Of a DNA stretch of 64,000 bases, positions 1,173-11,825 are shown one piece after another. Location: the NCBI GenBank assembly GCA_046565595.1, contig JBKHYG010000100.1, positions 20,838 through 84,837 of the forward strand, given 5' to 3'. A model generated the notes under the pieces. It searched no databases and had not been told where the DNA came from. It saw only the letters and a list, made by a program, of their open reading frames with translations. Each line of letters begins with the position of its first letter. Positions within the stretch are counted from its first letter, which is position 1. This stretch comes from Actinomycetota bacterium. Its GTDB lineage: Bacteria > Actinomycetota > AC-67. The position numbers and the translations under genes were made by a program.

Positions 1173-2489
1173 TCAGGCCATGCGTTCCAGGAAGCCGATC
1201 TGTGCCGTCAGGGCCCGCTCTAGTTCCGCCAGGTCGATGCTCTCGTTGGTCGAGTGGAGTCGAGCCTGCGGGTCGACGCAGCCGGTCAACAGCAAGGACG
1301 CATCGGGGAATGTCTCTGCGAAGGCCGCGACGAACGGGATCGAGCCGCCCATCCCGATGTCGACCGGATCGGTACCCCATGCCGCTCGCATCGCGTCATG
1401 CATGGCCTTGGCTGCGGGTGTAGTCGTATCCACCGTGAAGGAACCGCCCGCAGCACCACGCTTCACGCTGACCTTCGCACCCCACGGCGTATGCGCTTCG
1501 AGGTGCTTCACGAGTTCGTCCAGGGCTCGCGTCGCGTCGTCGCCAGGTGCGATCCGCATCGAAACCTTCGCACGCGCGACGGGAACCAACTGGTTGATCG
1601 CGTCCGCGACGCTAGGCGCATCGATGCCGATGATGCTTACGGCCGGCCTGGTCCACATACGCTCGGTCAGGCTGCCGCTGCCGATCATCTGCACGCCTTC
1701 CAGTACGCCCGCTTCCGCTCGCAGCCGTTGCTCGTCCATGTCGACCGGGCTTGGTTTCCCGATGACACGGTCTCCGACGGTCGGGTTGCCGCTCTCGTCG
1801 TGCAGCGTCGCGAGCAGCCGACAGAGGACCGTCAACGCGTCGGGGATGGCGCCGCCATACACGCCAGAGTGAAGCGCATGATCGAGGGTGCGTACCTCGA
1901 CGACCGCATCGACGAGACCGCGGAGACTCGTGGTCAGGCTTGGCGTTCCAAGCGCCCAGTTGCCAGAGTCGGCGAGAACACAGGCGTCGGCTCGTAGTTC
2001 GTCCGCGTACGCCTCGAGGAAACGAGGCAGGTTCTCGCTGCCAGTCTCCTCCTCGCCCTCGACCAAGATCCGAACGCCGACCGGAGGCTTCGAGTCGTAG
2101 GCGGAGATCGTCGCCCAGTGCGCGATGGCCCCCCATTTGTCGTCGACGGTTCCGCGGCCGTAGAGCCGCCCGTTCCGTTCGGTCGGCTCGAAGGGATCGG
2201 ACTCCCATTCCTCGAGCGGTCCCGGCGGTTGCACATCGTGGTGCGCGTACAGGAGCACCGTCGGGGCACCCTCGGGAGCGGGGACAGAAGCAAGCACGGC
2301 AGGATGTGCTCCATCGATCTCCAGCAGGCGGCTGTCCATGCCCGCAGATGCGTAGAGGTCGCGCAGGTAGTTGGCGCTCGCCCGCACATCCTCTGCGCGG
2401 CCTGGATCTGCACTGACCGACGGGATCTTGACGAGAGCCTCCAGGTGCGCGCGCACCTCGGGCATCAGGTCTGCAGCATCTCTAGGCAT
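1173..2489 (-). CDS. M20 family metallopeptidase (ArgE/DapE/CPG2-like dipeptidase)
   Basis: 438-aa ORF; HHDVQPPG, GRGTVDDKWG, and EGEEETGS metal-binding motifs typical of peptidase M20; alternative start at MPEVRAHL 24 nt downstream. Confidence 0.8.
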   Translation of the reverse strand: MPRDAADLMPEVRAHLEALVKIPSVSADPGRAEDVRASANYLRDLYASAGMDSRLLEIDGAHPAVLASVPAPEGAPTVLLYAHHDVQPPGPLEEWESDPFEPTERNGRLYGRGTVDDKWGAIAHWATISAYDSKPPVGVRILVEGEEETGSENLPRFLEAYADELRADACVLADSGNWALGTPSLTTSLRGLVDAVVEVRTLDHALHSGVYGGAIPDALTVLCRLLATLHDESGNPTVGDRVIGKPSPVDMDEQRLRAEAGVLEGVQMIGSGSLTERMWTRPAVSIIGIDAPSVADAINQLVPVARAKVSMRIAPGDDATRALDELVKHLEAHTPWGAKVSVKRGAAGGSFTVDTTTPAAKAMHDAMRAAWGTDPVDIGMGGSIPFVAAFAETFPDASLLLTGCVDPQARLHSTNESIDLAELERALTAQIGFLERMA

Positions 2490-2559
2490 GCTCGCGAGCC
2501 TAGGCCGGCGTACGAGACCGACGCTGGCCAGATGCCAGACGACTAACCTGAGAGGCTGC

Positions 2560-2632
2560 GGGCCCGTAGCTCAATCGGCAGAGCAGCGGACTTTTAATCC
2601 GACGGTTGGGGGTTCGATTCCCTCCGGGCCTA
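2560..2632 (+). tRNA. tRNA-Lys (anticodon TTT)
   Basis: 73-nt cloverleaf: acceptor GGGCCCG/CGGGCCT (G1-U72 wobble), D stem GCTC/GAGC, anticodon loop CTTTTAA, T arm GGGGG-TTCGATT-CCCTC; one G-A mismatch at base of anticodon stem. Confidence 0.8.
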
Positions 2633-2821
2633 CTCCCACCACTCTTGGGGAAGTTTCCCTTCGATCGCGCGGATGTTGCTGCGTACGCAGCTCGGGCAAG
2701 TGAAGACCGTGCGGCCGTCCTCGAACGAGAACGACCAGCCGTCTGGCATCCCGCCAGGGGCACATTCGGCGCTCAATCCACAGCGCCCGCAATACTTGGT
2801 CTCGCGCTCTTGGTCCGCCAT
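2630..2821 (-). CDS. Small zinc-ribbon protein (two CxxC pairs), hypothetical
   Basis: 63-aa ORF MADQERETKYCGRCGL...TCPSCV; four Cys in CxxC...CxxC arrangement; no strong RBS seen. Confidence 0.4.
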   Translation of the reverse strand: MADQERETKYCGRCGLSAECAPGGMPDGWSFSFEDGRTVFTCPSCVRSNIRAIEGKLPQEWWE

Positions 2822-2855
2822 GCGCCACAGTCTCGCAGACGCGTACCCTCAAGGC

Positions 2856-3815
2856 ATGCGGCTACTGATACTCGGAGGAACCGGATTCCTCGGTTACCAC
2901 ACGACACGCAGCGCACTCGACGCTGGGCATGAGGTTTCCCTGTTCAACCGAGGCAAGTCGCGCCCCGATGAGTTCGGTGAGGTCGAACGGCTCATCGGAG
3001 ATCGGGTCGCCGGAGACATAGCAGCGCTCGAAGCCGTGGACGGGCTCGACGCTGTGATCGATTGCACCGGCTACCTGCCTTCGCAGGTGAAGGCTTCCGC
3101 GCAACTGCTGCGCGCGCGCTCCCGCCGGTACCTGTTCGTATCGACCATCTCGGTCTATGACATGGGATCGGCCGAGGTTCCGATCACCGAGGATGCCCCG
3201 CTCGCGCAGATGCCTGATGGTGTCGACGAGTCGAAGGTGTCTCCGGAGACCTACGGGCCTCTCAAGGTTCGATGCGAACAGGAGGCTCGAGACGCTTTCG
3301 GCAACGACGCGGTGATCGTTCGCCCGGGGCTGATCGTTGGCCCTCACGATCCGACCGACCGCTTCACCTACTGGGTGCGGCGAGGACGCGACGGAGGGAA
3401 GATCCTCGCGCCGGGTTCTCCGCAGGATCGCGTGCAGGTGATCGACGGCCGCGACCTGGGCGCGTGGATGGTCGACCTCGCACTGGGGGAGATCTCGGGG
3501 GTATTCAATGGAGTTGCTCCGCCCGAAACCTTCGGCACGATGCTCGAGGCGTGCGTGGTCGCACCCGATGCCGAGGTGCGATGGATCCCCAGCGAAGTCC
3601 TGATCGAAGCCGGAGTCGAGCCATGGCAGGATCTGCCGCTCTGGGTCGGAGATGCTGAACTGTTCGTGAGCGATGCTCGGGCATCGGCCGCTGGCCTCGT
3701 GACCCGGCCGCTACGGGAGACGATCGCGGATACCCGCGAGTGGGATGAGCAACGCGGCCTGCCAGAACTCAAGGCTGGCATCTCGCGGGAGCGCGAGGCG
3801 GAACTACTTTCCTGA
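2856..3815 (+). CDS. NAD(P)-dependent epimerase/dehydratase family (SDR) protein
   Basis: Start moved to ATG 2856 (MRLLILGGTGFLGYH Rossmann GxxGxxG at N-terminus); track ORF from 2673 is an upstream extension overlapping the convergent small ORF. Confidence 0.75.
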   Translation: MRLLILGGTGFLGYHTTRSALDAGHEVSLFNRGKSRPDEFGEVERLIGDRVAGDIAALEAVDGLDAVIDCTGYLPSQVKASAQLLRARSRRYLFVSTISVYDMGSAEVPITEDAPLAQMPDGVDESKVSPETYGPLKVRCEQEARDAFGNDAVIVRPGLIVGPHDPTDRFTYWVRRGRDGGKILAPGSPQDRVQVIDGRDLGAWMVDLALGEISGVFNGVAPPETFGTMLEACVVAPDAEVRWIPSEVLIEAGVEPWQDLPLWVGDAELFVSDARASAAGLVTRPLRETIADTREWDEQRGLPELKAGISREREAELLS

Positions 3816-3856
3816 GCCGACCAGGATTACCCGAGGCTCGCGGCGAATCGTGGCAT

Positions 3857-6166
3857 ATGAGAAACTTCCGCCGCGTCACCGTTGGAACGGTCTCCGTCGT
3901 CGGTCTGACGCTGACCATGCTGTCGAGCCCGGTCGTGTCGACGCCGCTCGGCGTCCAGGTTCCGGTCGAGCCGACCGCGATCGTGATCGACGCGATCCGT
4001 GATGCGCTCGGCCAGTCACGCTGGCTCGGTATCGACGGCCATGTGCATTCCGATCACAGCCACGATGCTGGGTTCTTCCATCAGCAGGAGAAGACACCAG
4101 AGAGCCACGACACCTTCGTTCGTGACCAGATCGACGAAGCCGAACGCGTAGGCGAAGACCTGGTGACCCTGACCGATCACCGCACCTACGACCAGGCCTA
4201 CGACCCCGAATACAGGTCGAGCCAAGCAACGCTGCTGGATGGCGAAGAGTGGGGCGGCTATCCGCACGCGACCGCGTGGGGGATCGTCGAGACACTCGTG
4301 CAGGGACCAGATCTCGGCGACTGCGGCGTGACGCTGGCTGCTCGAGAAGTGCGAGCACAGGACGGGATCTTCGGCATAGCTCACCCCGAGGACGGTCAAC
4401 GGCCTTGCGTGAGCGAGGAGACGATCAAAGACATCCCCATCGACCATCTCGAAGCGTTCCGCTGGCCCCACACGAACTTCTGGGCCAGCAACATCGCCGC
4501 CGATAACCGAGTGGTTCCCGTCACGGGCTCCGACAATCATTTCCGCCAGTTGCATGGGACCGAAGCTGGGGTCGGCGGGAACTCGACGCTGATCCTGGCC
4601 GAGGACGCTACCCAGGCCGCCATCGTCGAAGCGGTCCGCGCGGGGCGGGTCGCGTCTGTCACTAGGATGCTCGGACCTACGCTGTCGACGCTGCTCGACG
4701 CTGACGGAGACGGCGAGTTCGAAACCCTGACCGGCGGCTGGTCCGAACCGACCGGGCCTACGGTGCGGGTGGCCTTCGAGGCCAGGAACGCGCAAGGTCT
4801 GCGGTTGCAGGTGTTGGACGATCAGGCGATGGTCGCAGAGGAACTGGTGACGCTGCCGGTGCAGACCTTCGTGTTCGATCTGCCCTCTGATCGTCCTTTC
4901 TGGCGGGGCCAATTGGATGCGAGCCCCACCGACCGCATCACCGGCGGAGTCCTACACGACTACCTGTCCTACATCGACTCGCTGAGGTTGATCAGTTCGC
5001 CGGTGTACCTCTCACCCGAGTCGCTTCGGGACCCTGGCTCCACGCCCTTGATCACCGACGCTGCATACGCTGGCTTCCCGGACACGGCGATCAGCGGCAC
5101 CGACACCCTGCTGGTGACCCAGGAGCGAGCCGCTGGCACCTATCGGATCGTGCTTCGGAATATCACGACCGGGACCGAGCAGGTCTTGAGCAGTGACGAT
5201 CAGGACGCGCGAGAACCGGCCATAGCAGCTCGAGGATCCAAGGTCGTCGTCGCCTACACCGATCGATCGCCAACCGCGCGCGCAGGCCGGATCTGGCTGC
5301 GGATCAGCGACGACGGGGGTGCGACCTTCCCGGATGCCGAAGGCCTCTTGATCAACAAGCGGCTGGGAGCCATGCCTGATGTCGCCATCTCGGAGGACGG
5401 CGACATACATGTCGTCTGGTCTTCGATGGAGGATGGTTTCAAGATCCGTCACAAGATCGCAGGCTCTGATGACTCGACCTTGCTGTCGTCTGCGGTGTCC
5501 AGACTGCTGGGACGGGCCTCCTACTCTCCCTACCAAGAGATCCGTCATGTGCCCGCCGCGATCGACCCCACCATCGCGATCGAGGGTGACGATGTGGTGG
5601 TCGCGTGGAGCGACAACCGCGAGGATGTCACACCGCTGCGTAACGGCACTCCAGATGATTGGGGCATCTATGTGGCGAGTTCCTCGGACTCCGGAGGCAC
5701 CTGGTCCCAGGATGCGCGGATCTCGCCTCGGCACGACAAGCGCGGGCCTGATCCGGATGACCCCGAACGCATGGAGGGCAACCCCGCCAAACATCCCACA
5801 CTCGCCTACCTAGACGGGCGGTTCGTTGCTGCTTGGAGTGACGCGAACGGAAGCGGAAGTCGCATCCGGTCGTTGCGTTCCACCGACGGTGGGGCAACCT
5901 GGAGCGGGCTGCTAGAGATCCCGACTCCCTCGAACGAGATGGCCTACCGCCCGGCCCTGGGACAGATCGCGGGCATGACGGTCGTGGCGTGGCAGCAGAG
6001 CGATGGGAAACGCTGGCTGCTTCACGCCGCCGATGTTGACTCTGCAGAGATCGGGGCGGCCTTCTCGCTCGGACCGTTCGCAGGTTTCCCGAGCCTCGCC
6101 GGCGACACGATCTTCTACACCGCGTCAGGCGCTGATCGTTACGGGATCGCTACGACCCAGTTCTGA
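3857..6166 (+). CDS. Secreted PHP-domain phosphoesterase fused to BNR/Asp-box repeat (sialidase-like beta-propeller) domain
   Basis: Signal peptide MRNFRRVTVGTVSVVGLTLTMLSSPVVS; PHP-type His clusters IDGHVHSDHSHDAG, TLTDHRTY, GIAHPEDG, TGSDNHF; C-terminal half has repeated SxDxGxTW/F Asp-boxes (SDDGGATF, SSDSGGTW, STDGGATW). Confidence 0.6.
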   Translation: MRNFRRVTVGTVSVVGLTLTMLSSPVVSTPLGVQVPVEPTAIVIDAIRDALGQSRWLGIDGHVHSDHSHDAGFFHQQEKTPESHDTFVRDQIDEAERVGEDLVTLTDHRTYDQAYDPEYRSSQATLLDGEEWGGYPHATAWGIVETLVQGPDLGDCGVTLAAREVRAQDGIFGIAHPEDGQRPCVSEETIKDIPIDHLEAFRWPHTNFWASNIAADNRVVPVTGSDNHFRQLHGTEAGVGGNSTLILAEDATQAAIVEAVRAGRVASVTRMLGPTLSTLLDADGDGEFETLTGGWSEPTGPTVRVAFEARNAQGLRLQVLDDQAMVAEELVTLPVQTFVFDLPSDRPFWRGQLDASPTDRITGGVLHDYLSYIDSLRLISSPVYLSPESLRDPGSTPLITDAAYAGFPDTAISGTDTLLVTQERAAGTYRIVLRNITTGTEQVLSSDDQDAREPAIAARGSKVVVAYTDRSPTARAGRIWLRISDDGGATFPDAEGLLINKRLGAMPDVAISEDGDIHVVWSSMEDGFKIRHKIAGSDDSTLLSSAVSRLLGRASYSPYQEIRHVPAAIDPTIAIEGDDVVVAWSDNREDVTPLRNGTPDDWGIYVASSSDSGGTWSQDARISPRHDKRGPDPDDPERMEGNPAKHPTLAYLDGRFVAAWSDANGSGSRIRSLRSTDGGATWSGLLEIPTPSNEMAYRPALGQIAGMTVVAWQQSDGKRWLLHAADVDSAEIGAAFSLGPFAGFPSLAGDTIFYTASGADRYGIATTQF

Positions 6167-6207
6167 TCTCACGCCGAGCAACACAGCCCCACGCATGAGA
6201 CCGGTCG

Positions 6208-7185
6208 TCACGCGTCGCGGCGTTGACGACGCGCTAAAGGTTCGCGGATCGGCGGTCGGTCCTGCTCCGCTAGATCAGCGATCTCGAGACTGGCTGCCGC
6301 GTCGGGCAGCAACGCTGTCGTAGGCACGACCCCGAGTTTGAGTCGGCCGTCCCGATCTGCCCTCTCGGCGATCGCACGCACGATCGTGGTCGCCATGCCG
6401 CGAAGTTGACGCAGGGGACGGTTGCGATGCACGCGCTCATCCAGATCGACCTGAGCCAGAGCATCGAGTCCGACCTCTGCGAGCAGGTCGATCAGCAGGG
6501 CGACATCCACGCCGTAACCGGTCCTGAAGGGCAGACGCTCCAGCACTTCACGCCGTCCTGCGTACTCGCCGGCCAGCGGCTGCAGGAATCCGGCGAGTTC
6601 GGGATACAGCAGGTTCAGCAGAGGACGCGCGGTCAGTTCGGTGACCCGACCGCCCGCCGCGGGAACCAGCGCGGTTTCGACCCGCAACGGCCGCCGATAG
6701 AAGCCCTTGGTGAAGGACAGGGTCTCGTCGAAGATCAGCGGAGCGACCAGCCTCGAGACGAACCGCTGATCGAAGTTGCGGATGTCTCCATCGACGAAAC
6801 ACACGATGTCTCCGTCGACGACCGCCAGCGAGCGCCAGAGAGCCTCGCCCTTCCCGAGGACCCACGGGATCTCGGGGAGGATCTGCGGTAACCGCTCGAC
6901 CCGCGCGCCTGCCACCTCGGCGATCTCAGCGGTCCGATCCGAAGAGTCGCAGTCGATCACGACCAACTCTGACACGACGCCGTCGCAAAGTTGCGCGGAG
7001 ATCAGCGAGACGATGTCCCCGATGGTGCGCGCTTCATCGCGAGCCGGGATCACGACGCTGACCTTCAACCGGCGAGCGCGAACCTGCTCAGCCAGGTCCT
7101 CGAGGCTTGCGCCGGGCGCCGTGAGGGTCCGTGATCCGGCCCACCGCTGTGCGGTGAGCGTGGCAGCGTCGATCGTAGCGCTCAT
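6208..7185 (-). CDS. gpgS: Glucosyl-3-phosphoglycerate synthase (GT81)
   Basis: Strong motif agreement with mycobacterial GpgS: VSVVIPARDE, GKGEALWRSLA, GFYRRPL, GGRVTEL, HRNRPL. Confidence 0.8.
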   Translation of the reverse strand: MSATIDAATLTAQRWAGSRTLTAPGASLEDLAEQVRARRLKVSVVIPARDEARTIGDIVSLISAQLCDGVVSELVVIDCDSSDRTAEIAEVAGARVERLPQILPEIPWVLGKGEALWRSLAVVDGDIVCFVDGDIRNFDQRFVSRLVAPLIFDETLSFTKGFYRRPLRVETALVPAAGGRVTELTARPLLNLLYPELAGFLQPLAGEYAGRREVLERLPFRTGYGVDVALLIDLLAEVGLDALAQVDLDERVHRNRPLRQLRGMATTIVRAIAERADRDGRLKLGVVPTTALLPDAAASLEIADLAEQDRPPIREPLARRQRRDA

Positions 7186-7242
7186 CGCGCGGCCAGACTA
7201 GCCGCGACGGTCGGCGCCGTTTATCCCAGGCGATCGGCCCTG

Positions 7243-7806
7243 TCAGGAGCCGTCGATACCGTCGCAGTTCTGGTCGATGCCGTCAACTGTCAGATCTGGC
7301 TCGCTCGGATTCACATCCGGGGCCAGGTCATCGCAGTCGCCTCCGTCTTCGGCCCAACCTACAGGAGGCTGATCGAAGCAGACAGGATCACCTGCGCCGA
7401 AGCCGTCGCCGTCCTGGTCCTTCCAGTAGTCCGAGTCCGTGACGGTCACCGCCACCGGGTCCGATGTCGTTGCCAGAGGCGTCGCGTCGAAGACGGTGGC
7501 TGTAACCGAGTGGTCACCGTCGGGACCGATGGCCAGATCGACATCGAACCGGCCGTCTGCATCGGCGGTCGCATAGTCCGCGATCTCGCCATCGACCTTG
7601 ATCGCCACGGTTCGGCCGTTGCCCGGGATGATGCCGTCTGGACCGAACGCTACGCGCCCCTGATAGGACAGCGACCGCTGACTGCACCTCTGGAGACCGC
7701 CGCCTCCTAGCGAGACCGTCGTGAGTCCCAGCGGGTCAGCCGACGCACCGCCGGTGCCGAACAGGGTCAGCGCGGCCGCTCCGGCCGCCAGCAGACTGCG
7801 GATCAT
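7243..7806 (-). CDS. Secreted protein with C-terminal cysteine-rich putative metal-binding (MopE-like) motif
   Basis: Start chosen at ATG 7806 (MIRSLLAAGAAALTLFGTGGASA signal peptide; RBS GGAGGG upstream); C-terminus DQDGDGFGAGDPVCFDQPP...GGDCDDLAPDVNPSEPDLTVDGIDQNCDG matches the Asp/Cys-rich metal-binding repeat. Confidence 0.55.
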   Translation of the reverse strand: MIRSLLAAGAAALTLFGTGGASADPLGLTTVSLGGGGLQRCSQRSLSYQGRVAFGPDGIIPGNGRTVAIKVDGEIADYATADADGRFDVDLAIGPDGDHSVTATVFDATPLATTSDPVAVTVTDSDYWKDQDGDGFGAGDPVCFDQPPVGWAEDGGDCDDLAPDVNPSEPDLTVDGIDQNCDGIDGS

Positions 7807-7931
7807 CGAACCCTCCTGCCGGTCGGGCCGGCCCAAGTCGTTGAGAGAAGTAGGGCGAGATTTCGACGCGTCTGACCATTTCCCTGCCGACCTGCAGGTG
7901 TGCCGGGCCCTCGCCCCGGGTACCCTGCGGG

Positions 7932-8780
7932 ATGATGCGGCAACAACGGACCGATCGCCTCGTCTGGCGAGTCACAGGCGAGGACGCCCTCGGCCTCCTC
8001 GAGGCGACCACGACGCAGCATGTTGCCGACCTGCAGCCTGGCCAGGCCAAGCCGGCGTGCCTCCTGGACGAGAACGGCCGGATCCAAGCCTTCCTCCGAG
8101 TATCGAGGGACCAAGAAGGCGCCGTCTATCTCGACGGCGTTCCCGCGGGAGCACCCGGGGTGGCTTGGGTAGCCAAACTCGCGCCGTTATCGCGGTGCGA
8201 GATCCGAGAAGCCTCTGACCTGATGGTGGTGCGTGGGGCGACCGGCGCCGACGGGGCGCTTGTAGAGGATCAACGGTTCGATGGACTCGAAGGGGCCGAC
8301 TCGATCGTGGCCGCCAACGACGAACCGGTCGAACCCGAGATCGATGAGGCTGAACGGGTAGCTCGCGGTTGGCCCCGGTTCGGCCTGGACTTCACCGACC
8401 AGACCCTGCTGAACGACACCCCGCTGCTCGAGCTCGCCACCTCTTTCACCAAGGGCTGTTACCGAGGCCAAGAGACCGTCGCCAAGATCCGAAACCTCGG
8501 GCACGCTCGTCGTCGGATGGTGCGCGCGCACGCCTCGAGTCCGGAGCGATGGATGGCTGGCGTCGAGGTTTCCCTCGATGGGACCTCGATCGGGACCGTC
8601 GGGTCAGCCGCGATCCTCGACGATGAGGCGTATGCGATAGCGACCGTCAAGAGCGAGCACGCCGAGGCGGTCGCGACGATCGGCGGAACCGAGGTTCGGC
8701 TCGAGCCCATCGTGCTGGCCGAAGCTCCCCCGCCACCTCCCCCTCCCGGCAGGACGCTTCGCCTCGGCATGAAGGGTTGA
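7932..8780 (+). CDS. ygfZ: Folate-binding YgfZ family protein (GcvT-like fold)
   Basis: Contains YgfZ signature KGCYRGQE; 282 aa. Confidence 0.7.
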   Translation: MMRQQRTDRLVWRVTGEDALGLLEATTTQHVADLQPGQAKPACLLDENGRIQAFLRVSRDQEGAVYLDGVPAGAPGVAWVAKLAPLSRCEIREASDLMVVRGATGADGALVEDQRFDGLEGADSIVAANDEPVEPEIDEAERVARGWPRFGLDFTDQTLLNDTPLLELATSFTKGCYRGQETVAKIRNLGHARRRMVRAHASSPERWMAGVEVSLDGTSIGTVGSAAILDDEAYAIATVKSEHAEAVATIGGTEVRLEPIVLAEAPPPPPPPGRTLRLGMKG

Positions 8781-8840
8781 GCCACGCAGCTACGGTCTGA
8801 CCGGTTCGCGTGGGCACGGTAAACTTGCCTTCCGAACCAG

Positions 8841-8916
8841 GCTCCCATCGTCCAGCGGCCTAGGATTCCGCCCTTTCACGGCGGCGACACGGGTTCGAAT
8901 CCCGTTGGGAGTACCA
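8841..8916 (+). tRNA. tRNA-Glu (anticodon TTC), CCA encoded
   Basis: Acceptor GCTCCCA/TGGGAGT (G1-U72 as in other actinobacterial tRNA-Glu), anticodon stem CCGCC/GGCGG with loop CTTTCAC, T arm ACGGG-TTCGAAT-CCCGT, 3' ACCA. Confidence 0.85.
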
Positions 8917-8923
8917 TTCCGAC

Positions 8924-9514
8924 ATGGTGTCTTGGCACAAGCCGATGCTCAGGATCTTCCTGGCGTCTCTGACCCTCACGGCGCTGCTGGCGATCATCGC
9001 CATCCTCACGCGATCCTTCAGCGACACCGGCGCGCAGATCCTCGGGAACAGTGCAGCCATAGCGATCTACTCGCTGCTCGCTCTGATCGCCGCTGTCCCG
9101 CAGCAGGAACCGCGGGCGAAGGATCTGGCCACGCTGACCGTCGTTTCCACGCTGATCGCCTTGACCTTGTGGACCGTCAACATCTGGAGCGGCAGCTTCG
9201 AAGAGTGGACCGTTCGTCTGATCGGCATCTCGACGACGCTCGCCTTGGCCGGAACACATGGCTCGTTGATGCTGCGCCTGTTCGGCAAGACCGTCGAGAC
9301 CGACATGGTGGTCAAGATCACGCTGGGGTTGAACGCCGTGCTTTCGGCGATACTCATCGTGCTGTTCCTGGGCGACGGGAACAACATGCCGTGGCGGTTC
9401 GTTGCCGTACTCGCGGTGCTAGCTGTCCTTGGCACCCTCGCTGCCCCTCTGGTAGCTGCGCTGACCGAGACGCCCAGTCCCCGCAAACGATCGACCGAGC
9501 CGTCGCAGGCCTAG
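8924..9514 (+). CDS. Integral membrane protein, hypothetical (about 5 TM helices)
   Basis: 196-aa ORF rich in hydrophobic helical segments; no recognizable motif. Confidence 0.5.
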   Translation: MVSWHKPMLRIFLASLTLTALLAIIAILTRSFSDTGAQILGNSAAIAIYSLLALIAAVPQQEPRAKDLATLTVVSTLIALTLWTVNIWSGSFEEWTVRLIGISTTLALAGTHGSLMLRLFGKTVETDMVVKITLGLNAVLSAILIVLFLGDGNNMPWRFVAVLAVLAVLGTLAAPLVAALTETPSPRKRSTEPSQA

Positions 9515-9517
9515 CGC

Positions 9518-10363
9518 CTACCGGATCTGTTCCAGGAACTTGGCGTATCCGTCGAGTGCCTGCATGGCATCCCCCGGCGAGTCGCACGGCACCCAGAAGA
9601 AGATCTGATCCACGCCCTGGCTCCGCTGGTACTCGATCCGTTCGGGATCTGGCCTCCCGCCGAAGACGGTCAGACGGAAGTCATCCATAGACCTTCCGCG
9701 ATCGGCCAGCGCCTGCTTCAACGATTCCAACGACTCGGTCATGCTGCCCATGCCTGCTATGGGCATCCATCCGTCGCAGAACTCGGCTAGATGCGCGAAG
9801 GTCCTCGGTCCGGGAGCCGCGCCGAGGACGATCGGCGGTCCGCCGGCTTGCGCGGGTTTCGGCCACGACCAGACCGGCCCGAAGGAGACATGTTCTCCTT
9901 CGAACGATGCTTCTTCCTTGGTCCAGAGTTCGCGCATGGCAAGCGCACTCTCGCGCACGAACGCGCGCCGATCCTTGAAGGCGACGCCGTGATTCTCGAG
10001 TTCGTCTTGGTTCCAGCCGTAACCGATCCCAAGGACTGCTCGGCCGCCAGAGAGCACATCCAACGAGGCGATGACCTTGGCCGTCACGATCGGATCACGC
10101 TGTGCCAACAGAGAGATCCCGGTCCACAGTTCGATCCGTTCGGTCACCATGGCGGCTGCAGTCAGCGCGATGAAGGGATCGTGGGTCCGCTTGTAGTACT
10201 CGGGCAACTCTCCGCCGCCGGGGAAGGGGGTCTTACGAGACACGGGGATGTGCGTGTGTTCGGGGAAGGCGATCGCGTCGAATCCGCGTTCCTCGGCAGC
10301 CTTGGCGAACTCGTGTGGAGCCATCGCGTGGTCGGCCGGGAACATCGTCAATCCGAACTTCAT
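9518..10363 (-). CDS. LLM-class F420-dependent (luciferase-like) oxidoreductase
   Basis: Start reassigned to ATG 10363 (MKFGLTMFPADHA...); luciferase-like TIM-barrel signatures FDAIAFPEHTH, LDVLSGGRAVLGIGYGW; track ORF to 10831 is a 156-aa non-homologous upstream extension. Confidence 0.8.
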   Translation of the reverse strand: MKFGLTMFPADHAMAPHEFAKAAEERGFDAIAFPEHTHIPVSRKTPFPGGGELPEYYKRTHDPFIALTAAAMVTERIELWTGISLLAQRDPIVTAKVIASLDVLSGGRAVLGIGYGWNQDELENHGVAFKDRRAFVRESALAMRELWTKEEASFEGEHVSFGPVWSWPKPAQAGGPPIVLGAAPGPRTFAHLAEFCDGWMPIAGMGSMTESLESLKQALADRGRSMDDFRLTVFGGRPDPERIEYQRSQGVDQIFFWVPCDSPGDAMQALDGYAKFLEQIR

Positions 10364-10422
10364 CGGGTCTCCCCCCAGGTCCGTGCTATCCCTATCGGGG
10401 TGAGGATAGAGCTTCGCCTGGC

Positions 10423-11625
10423 TCAGGCCGCGTTCGGGATGACTCGACGGGAGAACTGGTAGCGGTCCTGCCACCACTTGCCGGTGATGCGCTCCAGCGT
10501 TACGCCACCGCGCGCACCCGAGGCATGCAGCAACCAACCGTTTCCGAGCAGCAGGCCAGCGTGTTCCATGCGCGAGGGATCGTTGTCCATATCGAAGAAG
10601 GCGATATCCATCGGAAGCGTGCGCGCGAAGGGATATCGGGTGACGGTGGCCTTCGCCATCTCCGTAGCCGTGCGTGGCTCCAACTTCCAACCGTCGTAAC
10701 CGCGCCAGCGCACCACATCGTATGAAGGGTGTTGCGGCGCCTGAAGAACCCACCATGCGAGTCCTGTGCAGTCGAAGCCGCCTTGGGGTTGCGCGCCGTA
10801 CGGGTAGTCCGGCCCGGTCGGACGGAACCATTCACCGGCGGTCACATACGGGAACCCTGCGTACTTCAGCGCGAACTTGACTGCTTCGATGCGGGCGGGA
10901 GTCATAGCGGGAAGCACGATGTCGGTGAACCCGTCGACCCGCCACGCGTAACTGCTGCGTGTCTGGTCGGTGATCTTGGCGGCCTGAGCCAGCGAGTGGG
11001 CGGCGTGCGCGCGCGTCAGAGCCTGCCCAGGTCGGAGTTCTTCGGCCTCGAACTGGTCGGGCAGGTTGGTGTGCAGGCCCAGCCGTTCGGCCACGATCAG
11101 GAAGCCCGTGCTCCACCAGGGCGCCAGTCGGACGCCGTCCTCGGTCGAAAGTTTCGAGACTGCGGCAGCTTCACGGTAGTAGCCGAGCGCGCGCACCAAC
11201 GCCTGATCCAGGTCACGCCTGGAGACGGGCCCATCGGGACGGAATTCGCCCCCCTTGGGTTTCATCCACCAGCGCGAGACGGCGTAAGGAGCGGCGGACG
11301 CCAGGGGCGTCCCCGGCTCGACATCAGGGAACTCGCGAGTCGAGCTCCAACCTTCTGGGGGCGGGAAGGCTCGGAACATCGCCAACGCCAGATCGCGGCG
11401 CGTGAAGTGGTCTCCCGGCCCGAACCCCTCTTTCCGGGCCGGGATCCACTCCCTGGCTTCGTCAGAGACGAAGCCGATCTGTTCGGCGGCCCAGTGGCCT
11501 GGAGGAACACCCCCGTAGGGGCCGGCCTGGCCTGACTGGGCAGAAGCTGGAGTCGGGGCGGCGGCCAGCAAGCCGACCGCGATCAGAGTCGCGGCCGCGC
11601 GTCGTGGCAAAGCCCCCCGGTTCAT
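10423..11625 (-). CDS. Secreted cell-wall hydrolase: three SLH-like repeats plus C-terminal NlpC/P60 domain
   Basis: Start chosen at ATG 11625 (MNRGALPRRAAATLIAVGLLAAAPTPASA signal peptide); repeats TRRDLALAMFRAF / SRRDLDQALVRALG / TRAHAAHSLAQAA; C-terminal FDCTGLAWWV (Cys) and HAGLLLGNGWLLHAS (His) NlpC/P60 catalytic motifs. Longer track ORF would overlap tRNA-Asp. Confidence 0.6.
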   Translation of the reverse strand: MNRGALPRRAAATLIAVGLLAAAPTPASAQSGQAGPYGGVPPGHWAAEQIGFVSDEAREWIPARKEGFGPGDHFTRRDLALAMFRAFPPPEGWSSTREFPDVEPGTPLASAAPYAVSRWWMKPKGGEFRPDGPVSRRDLDQALVRALGYYREAAAVSKLSTEDGVRLAPWWSTGFLIVAERLGLHTNLPDQFEAEELRPGQALTRAHAAHSLAQAAKITDQTRSSYAWRVDGFTDIVLPAMTPARIEAVKFALKYAGFPYVTAGEWFRPTGPDYPYGAQPQGGFDCTGLAWWVLQAPQHPSYDVVRWRGYDGWKLEPRTATEMAKATVTRYPFARTLPMDIAFFDMDNDPSRMEHAGLLLGNGWLLHASGARGGVTLERITGKWWQDRYQFSRRVIPNAA

Positions 11626-11747
11626 GTGATCAAAGAAGCGTAAGGGGCGCATGGGGTGGGTGGTCAACCCGGAAAGTTTCACTCGATGGTTTAGATGATC
11701 GACTACCGCTAAGCGCCAGGAAGCGGTACACTCCGGCCCTCGTTCCC

Positions 11748-11825
11748 GCCCCTGTGGAGCAGTTTGGAGTGCTCGCCACCCTGTCAAGGTGGAGGCCGCC
11801 GGTTCAAGTCCGGTCAGGGGCGCCA
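11748..11825 (+). tRNA. tRNA-Asp (anticodon GTC), CCA encoded
   Basis: Acceptor GCCCCTG/CAGGGGC perfectly paired, anticodon stem CCACC/GGTGG with loop CTGTCAA, T loop TTCAAGT, discriminator G + CCA. Confidence 0.85.

Follow-up and report, generated by a model that had tools for sequence, protein, structure and literature searches.

A predicted exported PHP-type metallohydrolase with a seven-bladed Asp-box propeller in an Actinomycetota bacterium

What might a PHP-type metal site do outside the cytoplasm when it is joined to a beta-propeller? The question is raised by a gene of an Actinomycetota bacterium (NCBI GenBank assembly GCA_046565595.1), found in a stretch of 64,000 nucleotides of contig JBKHYG010000100.1 (positions 20,838 to 84,837) that was analysed as a whole and is here called the window. 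The gene is an open reading frame (ORF) of 769 codons with an ATG start, plus a stop codon, at window positions 3857..6166 (+). In the original prediction, made from the sequence without database searches, its product was described as a secreted fusion of a PHP-family phosphoesterase domain with a sialidase-like BNR/Asp-box propeller, directed at a glycan or polymer. An identical protein (P0001) is already recorded at NCBI as a hypothetical protein from an Actinomycetota metagenome-assembled genome (MAG), and full-length relatives range in identity from 82% down to about 27%; given the identical record and relatives of up to 82% identity, 3857..6166 is a real gene. The product is read here, with moderate confidence, as an exported stand-alone PHP metallohydrolase with a trinuclear site, most likely a phosphoesterase, in which the propeller serves as a substrate platform. 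The observation behind the original prediction was confirmed, and its interpretation is partly supported.

The AlphaFold2 model, built with 29 homologs, had a mean predicted local distance difference test (pLDDT) value of 82 and a predicted template modelling (pTM) score of 0.87, and the barrel and the all-beta propeller domain for which such a model had been proposed as a check were both displayed. Residues 1-33 were unstructured (pLDDT <50), and were followed by an alpha/beta barrel (residues about 55-270), a beta-sandwich (about 271-392) and an all-beta C-terminal domain (398-769) with 28 strands. The pTM score suggests a fixed arrangement of the modelled domains. At the level of domains, the features of the gene are the following.

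3857..6166, + strand: complete ORF of 769 aa, predicted exported PHP-type metallohydrolase with beta-sandwich and seven-bladed propeller (100% identity to P0001, the MAG protein at NCBI; homologs at E=0)
3857..3940, + strand: signal-peptide-like N-terminus, residues 1-28, with R2, R5 and R6 in the n-region, an uncharged h-region at residues 7-24 and possible cleavage after VVS (from the sequence and the low pLDDT of residues 1-33)
4019..4666, + strand: PHP-fold catalytic barrel, residues 55-270
4667..5032, + strand: immunoglobulin (Ig)-like beta-sandwich, residues 271-392, lying within the CehA/McbA domain model and counterpart of the second domain of 3E38
5048..6163, + strand: seven-bladed Asp-box (BNR_2-type) beta-propeller, residues 398-769, with blade starts near residues 408, 454, 507, 571, 647, 699 and 745

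The barrel was found to have the distorted (beta/alpha)7 form that is the fold of the PHP superfamily, and it carries five His/Asp/Glu motifs, placed by alignment and, as stated below, by mapping on a published ligand list or on the profile alignment with 3E38.

4034..4066, + strand: motif I, DGHVHSDHSHD, residues 60-70; H62 and H64 predicted alpha-metal ligands, D70 predicted gamma-metal ligand, D66 and H67 specific to the fused subfamily (alignment, mapped on the No-PDE/3E38 ligand list, PMC11656708)
4172..4183, + strand: motif TDHR, residues 106-109; H108 predicted gamma-metal ligand, R109 subfamily-specific (alignment)
4241..4267, + strand: motif GEEWGGYPH, residues 129-137; E131 predicted bridging carboxylate, H137 predicted beta-metal ligand, E130 subfamily-specific (alignment)
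4379..4396, + strand: motif AHPEDG, residues 175-180; H176 predicted beta-metal ligand, with P177 and D179 (alignment and 3E38 profile alignment)
4529..4543, + strand: motif SDNHF, residues 225-229; D226 predicted alpha-metal ligand, H228 predicted gamma-metal ligand (alignment and 3E38 profile alignment)

The ligands of the 3E38-type trinuclear site are given in the No-PDE paper as H61, H63 and D260 for the alpha metal, H142 and H203 for the beta metal, E135 as the bridging residue, and D68, H93 and H262 for the gamma metal (PMC11656708); both Sb-PDE and No-PDE purify with a trinuclear Zn site (PMC5460133; PMC11656708). Their counterparts in the window protein stand in the same order and with near-identical spacing: H62, H64 and D226 (alpha), H137 and H176 (beta), E131 (bridging), and D70, H108 and H228 (gamma). 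The distance from E131 to H137 is 6, versus 7 at No-PDE. This mapping rests on motifs and spacing, not on structural superposition. An attempt to map the substrate pocket of No-PDE by ligand offsets was abandoned as unreliable, the 3E38 hidden Markov model (HMM) alignment placing an insertion at H176+3.

The motifs were checked at the nucleotide level and are at least 90% conserved in the 29 homologs, as is each of the nine ligands in the 29-sequence alignment; the PHP His cluster behind a signal-like N-terminus, noted in the original prediction, was thereby verified. When 47 propeller-fused proteins were compared with 32 unfused PHP-plus-sandwich proteins, D107, H108, E131, H176, D226 and H228 were invariant in both groups; H137 was likewise invariant among the fused proteins, with 97% conservation among the unfused. 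Conservation of D66, H67, Q76, Q91, R109, E130, D179 and F229 was found mainly among the fused proteins, which therefore have an active-site signature of their own. The trinuclear site of the window protein thus appears complete, and ligands so well preserved speak strongly for an active metallohydrolase.

Among the evidence for assignment to the PHP superfamily are two profile matches. The best-scoring curated model was NCBIfam NF038032, 'CehA/McbA family metallohydrolase', which spans residues 55-385 of the window protein and positions 1-314 of its own 315, hence nearly end to end; it matches 29 of 29 relatives, with orthologs at 82.7-108 bits (82.7 for P0012, which is 40% identical, 101 for P0013 and 108 for P0014). 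A profile of the N-terminal module matched 3E38 in the PDB at E 3.4e-5 with the HxH, HP and SDxH motifs aligned, and single-sequence phmmer against the PDB gave no match for the whole protein or for the propeller alone. The N-terminal module was modelled separately, since a whole-chain Foldseek search against the PDB was swamped by propeller matches, most of the hits being of this kind and having poor TM-scores.

The C-terminal domain is built of seven repeats of a 'P-x-h-A ... V-h-W' unit, and seven repeats with 28 strands give seven blades of four strands. The Asp-boxes and the most conserved segment of the propeller are located as follows.

5306..5329, + strand: Asp-box 1, SDDGGATF, residue 484, blade 2, with D486 invariant (motif and alignment)
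5603..5662, + strand: blade-4 loop AWSDNREDVTPLRNGTPDDW, the most conserved propeller segment, with R588, D590, P593, D600 and W602 invariant and D586 about 97% conserved (alignment)
5681..5704, + strand: Asp-box 2, SSDSGGTW, residue 609, blade 4 (motif)
5879..5902, + strand: Asp-box 3, STDGGATW, residue 675, blade 5 (motif)

At least three SxDxGxTW boxes had been predicted here, and three were found, at residues 484, 609 and 675, where composition would lead one to expect 0.037; in 20,000 shuffles that number was never reached. PF13088 (BNR_2) scored 24.8 bits for the window protein (E 1.7e-5), below its gathering score of 31.4, and matched 19 of the 29 relatives at E<=0.01 (best E 7.5e-12), while the nearest stand-alone propeller relatives scored 85-139 bits with the same model. 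As the score of the window protein is below threshold and its stand-alone relatives are strong BNR_2 proteins, the propeller is placed in the BNR/Asp-box superfamily by transitive homology only. The description as sialidase-like holds to that extent. In the propeller alignment no FRIP motif ([FYWL]R[IVL]P) and no Arg triad were present, and of all Arg, Tyr and Glu columns R588 alone was conserved at 85% or more; with these absences and seven blades instead of six, a sialidase identity was rejected. By fold comparison, lectins, integrins and WD40 proteins scored equally well. 'Choice-of-anchor O' matches in six relatives were likewise rejected, being at the level of the Asp-boxes and far below the cutoff of that family.

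The N-terminus of the window protein, MRNFRRVTVGTVSVVGLTLTMLSSPVVS, has three Arg within its first six residues, followed by 18 uncharged residues. A signal-like N-terminus (signal, lipobox or Tat-like), called by a crude rule, was found in 44 of 53 full-architecture relatives, 16 of these with a lipobox and 8 with a twin-arginine motif; the remaining nine are mostly fragments or have mis-called starts. Six relatives carry PEP-CTERM-like C-terminal tails, and two have three CWB2 cell-wall-binding domains each, one of them with PKD domains as well. Judged from these features, the family is extracytoplasmic. That PHP proteins are usually cytoplasmic, which had made secretion look unusual, does not apply to this branch, where Sb-PDE, a diesterase, is exported with a signal-peptide cleavage site confirmed by N-terminal sequencing (PMC5460133; PMC11656708), the carbaryl hydrolase from Pseudomonas sp. 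C5pp, an enzyme of McbA type, is periplasmic and a signal peptide is predicted for CehA (PMC8292978).

The fusion is rare, not unique, and present in tractable organisms. An exhaustive phmmer search over 1.84 billion cluster representatives gave 1006 matches at E<=1e-3 and 24 at E<=1e-30, so that the architecture is uncommon, as predicted; at least 97 species nevertheless carry a relative in a scan of one genome per species. By local domain HMMs, the 175 retrieved proteins fell into 53 that combine PHP, sandwich and propeller, 32 that have PHP and sandwich without a propeller, 12 with PHP alone, 3 in which sandwich and propeller occur without PHP, and 75 with the propeller alone. The order is permuted in P0033 (propeller, PHP, sandwich), and P0037 and P0040 have an extra degenerate PHP domain N-terminal to the full module. 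The fused family recurs in many soil and marine bacteria. Cultured actinobacterial carriers include Streptomyces, Amycolatopsis, Planotetraspora, Nonomuraea, Kribbella, Actinacidiphila and Saccharopolyspora, and actinobacterial carriers are mostly mycelial soil genera; proteobacterial ones include Alcanivorax, Alloalcanivorax, Variovorax, Stagnimonas and Hydrocarboniphaga. In the scan of loci L026-L079, many proteobacterial carriers belong to hydrocarbon-associated genera (Alcanivorax, Alloalcanivorax, Hydrocarboniphaga, Polycyclovorans) or to related Nevskiales and allies (Solimonas, Stagnimonas, Oceanococcus), and Variovorax is a further carrier. No paper on a PHP-propeller fusion was found in the literature search.

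On these grounds the following mode of action is proposed. The protein would be secreted, or held N-terminally at the membrane, with a catalytic part formed by the PHP-fold barrel, which is of the CehA/McbA/3E38/Sb-PDE branch. On the analogy of other members of the branch, a bridging water activated by the alpha and beta metals would attack an ester, most probably a phosphoester (mono- or diester), and the gamma metal would stabilise the leaving group. The propeller, having no sialidase catalytic residues, is predicted to pack rigidly on the catalytic module and probably provides a platform or lid to which a larger extracellular substrate would bind. A phosphoester substrate would correspond to the most common outcome for the PHP fold, and no more; a physiological role such as phosphate scavenging is conceivable.

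Several points, concerning the family models, the N-terminus, the gene neighbourhood and the upstream DNA, weigh against this reading. PsfC, a neighbour with a PHP fold, is not known to be a simple hydrolase. The original prediction had named PF02811 (PHP) and PF13088 as the models by which it should stand or fall; PF02811 gave no match to the window protein at E<=1 and PF13088 reached 24.8 of the 31.4 bits required, so that by the letter of the terms set beforehand this support fell away. PF02811 matched one of the 29 relatives (E 0.004), the family being too divergent for that model. Even NF038032 scored the window protein at 77.2 bits (E 1.5e-21), 2.8 bits under its curated cutoff of 80, which is probably why NCBI names the relative P0025 by this model and leaves the window protein 'hypothetical'. 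The namesake family of NF038032, moreover, consists of carbamate-ester hydrolases, and a review calls CehA metal-independent (PMC13594046). At the N-terminus, the h-region is moderately hydrophobic (mean Kyte-Doolittle 1.88), no canonical AxA site was found, and beyond the twin Arg the Tat consensus is missing. In view of the absent AxA site and the moderate hydrophobicity, an uncleaved N-terminal membrane anchor is possible, as is a cleaved Sec signal.

The gene neighbourhood is a further point against the reading. Upstream of the gene, across a gap of 41 nucleotides, is an NAD-dependent epimerase/dehydratase gene, and downstream the gene converges on one for a GT2 glycosyltransferase; this context was found again only at the locus of a 63%-identical relative. 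In seven more distant contexts no neighbour was consistently shared, the neighbourhoods differing by lineage, and ORF clustering over 80 genome loci revealed as widely shared only the target gene and its antisense shadow ORFs, with genus-level synteny otherwise. The gene is stand-alone, with no conserved partner, and the proposed targeting of a glycan or polymer therefore draws no support from its neighbours.

The syntenic locus of the 63%-identical relative (L001, 1-18313) corresponds to window positions 1173-11787, with M20 peptidase, epimerase, target, GT2, MopE-like, GCV_T-like, luciferase-like and NlpC/P60 genes. Its intergenic gaps hold four toxin-antitoxin-type pairs (PemK; Unstab_antitox; Gp49/HTH_XRE; PhdYeFM/PIN), and several of the corresponding gaps in the window are occupied by genes for tRNA (Lys 2560, Glu 8841, Asp 11748, Phe 12597), with no toxin-antitoxin genes seen there. 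In two unrelated lineages, an actinobacterial metagenome contig (L002, 3416-4699) and a Nevskiaceae MAG (L005, 8400-9752), a CNNM/CBS/CorC_HlyC gene of Mg/Co efflux type lies within about 1.5 kb of the target homolog, an adjacency that may be due to chance or to a metal-homeostasis link.

A connection with phosphate was sought by scoring PhoP-type direct repeats (PHO boxes) upstream of homologs at 36 scorable actinomycete loci, with the upstream regions of other genes at the same loci, 162 in number, as controls. Scores of at least 11/14 were reached in 8 of the 36 homolog regions and in 5 of the 162 controls (Fisher p = 4e-4). PHO-box-like repeats occur about 300 nucleotides upstream of the homolog in L029, L022 and L053, an example being GGTCACCCCCGGTTCACC from a Streptomyces locus, with 13/14 core matches. 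The enrichment is a weak hint of a phosphate link, as it concerns a minority of loci, uses approximated start codons and has a low threshold; the DNA upstream of the window gene is itself coding, so that the score is not applicable there.

Among the alternatives, hydrolysis of carbamates or carboxyl esters, with small aromatic esters or xenobiotics as substrates in place of phosphoesters, is unlikely, even though it is what the name of the best-scoring curated model would suggest. Some distant homologs lie among hydrolase, cytochrome P450 and beta-lactamase-type genes, and the hydrocarbon association of many proteobacterial carriers would fit xenobiotic substrates. These pointers are offset by the setting of the window gene in core chromosome with no adjacent insertion sequence (IS) elements or catabolic operons, and by the age and wide spread of the fused family, unlike pesticide hydrolases of recent recruitment. 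Carbaryl hydrolysis by McbA does require His residues of its PHP-like domain, and the C5pp enzyme is periplasmic (PMC8292978), but a tblastn search of a plasmid collection returned generic family members at 23-28% identity, none of them annotated as a carbaryl hydrolase. Furthermore, the subfamily-specific polar or charged residues predicted to lie near the metal site (D66, H67, Q76, Q91, R109, E130 and D179) fit an anionic or polar substrate.

A more far-reaching version of the phosphoesterase reading is doubtful: the blade-4 loop (R588, D590, D600 and W602) might reach the trinuclear centre and form a composite active site, making the family a new exported class that cuts phosphodiesters of extracellular polymers or glycoconjugates (teichoic-acid-like phosphoglycans, phosphorylated exopolysaccharide or extracellular DNA), or else the propeller might hold a second catalytic site and the protein be bifunctional. 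CylK, whose active site is at a domain interface, is a precedent for a composite site.

An extracellular DNA or RNA phosphodiesterase, in which the polymer would be held by propeller and sandwich and cut at the PHP site, with phosphate scavenging or the turnover of nucleic acids as its role, is decidedly unlikely, and is in truth a sub-case of the phosphoesterase reading, not exclusive of it. Asp-box propellers are usually linked to glycans, the closest neighbours 3E38 and TM0559 are not known nucleases, and the Pfam scan gave no recognised nucleic-acid-binding domain; the substrates of Sb-PDE are small diesters (PMC11656708).

It is improbable that the propeller is itself the catalyst, comparable to the seven-bladed GH145, PL25 and PL42 enzymes in being a glycoside hydrolase or polysaccharide lyase, with the protein bifunctional or the PHP domain accessory. 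The comparable scores of lectins, integrins and WD40 proteins mean that the fold alone does not imply catalysis, and the propeller offers a single invariant Arg, without FRIP motif or Arg triad; no CAZy-type Pfam family exceeded its threshold (GH43 at E 0.0078 only), and a fully intact PHP site is hardly that of an accessory domain. Very improbable, finally, is a PHP domain that is a scaffold without catalysis or without hydrolysis, its role being structural, as in E. coli Pol III alpha, or its chemistry of another kind, as in PsfC; the name 'hydrolase' would then be mistaken. All nine ligands are kept across about 50 proteins from several phyla, and structural PHP domains are reported to have lost metal ligands (PMC3666897). 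The reading as an exported PHP metallohydrolase, most likely a phosphoesterase, is accordingly preferred.

The rest of the window is ordinary core chromosome, with genes for ClpB, DnaK, PurL, a PurF-like protein, acetyl-CoA synthetase and a 2-oxoacid dehydrogenase E2 as well as five tRNA genes, and its even guanine-plus-cytosine (GC) content of about 0.64 gives no hint of a mobile island. PADLOC returned no defence-system match, and a promoter and terminator scan around the 3857..6166 gene gave nothing above chance. Inside the gene, the antisense ORFs 4016-4912 (-), of 298 aa, and 5012-5794 (-), of 260 aa, are shadows and not genes; equivalents recur in 47-59 of 80 related loci because the sense gene is conserved in high-GC DNA. 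The 197-aa ORF at 7243-7836 (-) has a putative Cu-binding motif of MopE type (PF11617, 32.9 bits) and matches an Ig-like model (Big_6) weakly; kept beside the target in L001, it may be another exported protein. The mutually overlapping mechanical ORFs 9518-10831 (-) and 10423-11787 (-) reach too far at their 5' ends: a luciferase-like monooxygenase domain begins at residue 174 of the former and an NlpC/P60 domain at residue 327 of the latter. ORF 10423-11787 overlaps tRNA-Asp (11748-11825), and both true starts must be downstream, the L001 orthologs having 279 and 396 aa.

Only lately have exported enzymes of the PHP superfamily come to be known, as phosphodiesterases in the case of Sb-PDE and No-PDE and as carbamate hydrolases in that of CehA and McbA, and the majority of their relatives are without known function. 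The window gene is one of a coherent, uncharacterised subfamily whose catalytic module invariably comes with a seven-bladed Asp-box propeller and bears an active-site signature of its own, and cultured, tractable carriers (Streptomyces, Amycolatopsis, Alcanivorax, Variovorax) make the substrate identifiable by experiment. Should that substrate be an environmental organophosphate or a cell-surface polymer, the family would be a new player in the turnover of extracellular phosphorus or of the envelope, and might be of use as a biocatalyst. The present value is an improved annotation, from hypothetical protein to exported CehA/McbA-like PHP metallohydrolase with BNR propeller, and not a surprise.

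Among known systems, CylK (PDB 7RON), the cylindrocyclophane Friedel-Crafts alkylase, is comparable in its architecture alone: it is 9% identical, its propeller has a Ca-binding beta-roll and not a PHP barrel as partner, its chemistry is unrelated, and it is biosynthetic and not exported. GH33 sialidases and BNR_2 propellers resemble the window propeller in having Asp-boxes between blade strands 3 and 4, in the weak PF13088 matches and as top Foldseek matches. GH33 sialidases have six blades, a FRIP motif, an Arg triad and a Tyr/Glu nucleophile, whereas the window propeller has seven blades and none of these motifs or residues. CehA and McbA have given their name to the domain model NF038032, which the window protein matches end to end though 2.8 bits under the cutoff, and they differ in their carbamate-ester substrates and in the setting of their genes, beside mobile elements or within catabolic clusters; the PHP-like domain of McbA is in the C-terminal half (His467, His477, His504), whereas that of the window protein is N-terminal. 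3E38, a Bacteroides vulgatus 'two-domain protein containing predicted PHP-like metal-dependent phosphoesterase' of unknown function, has the profile match and the Ig-like second domain in common with the window protein, from which it differs in its length of 343 aa, the lack of a propeller, an identity of about 20% and other substrate-pocket residues. Sb-PDE and No-PDE, from Sphingobium and Novosphingobium, are proteins of 441 aa without a propeller, specialised for flame-retardant diesters and homologous at the superfamily or branch level only; they belong to the 3E38-related branch and, like the window protein, have the ligand pattern HxH, D, H, E, H, H, DxH.

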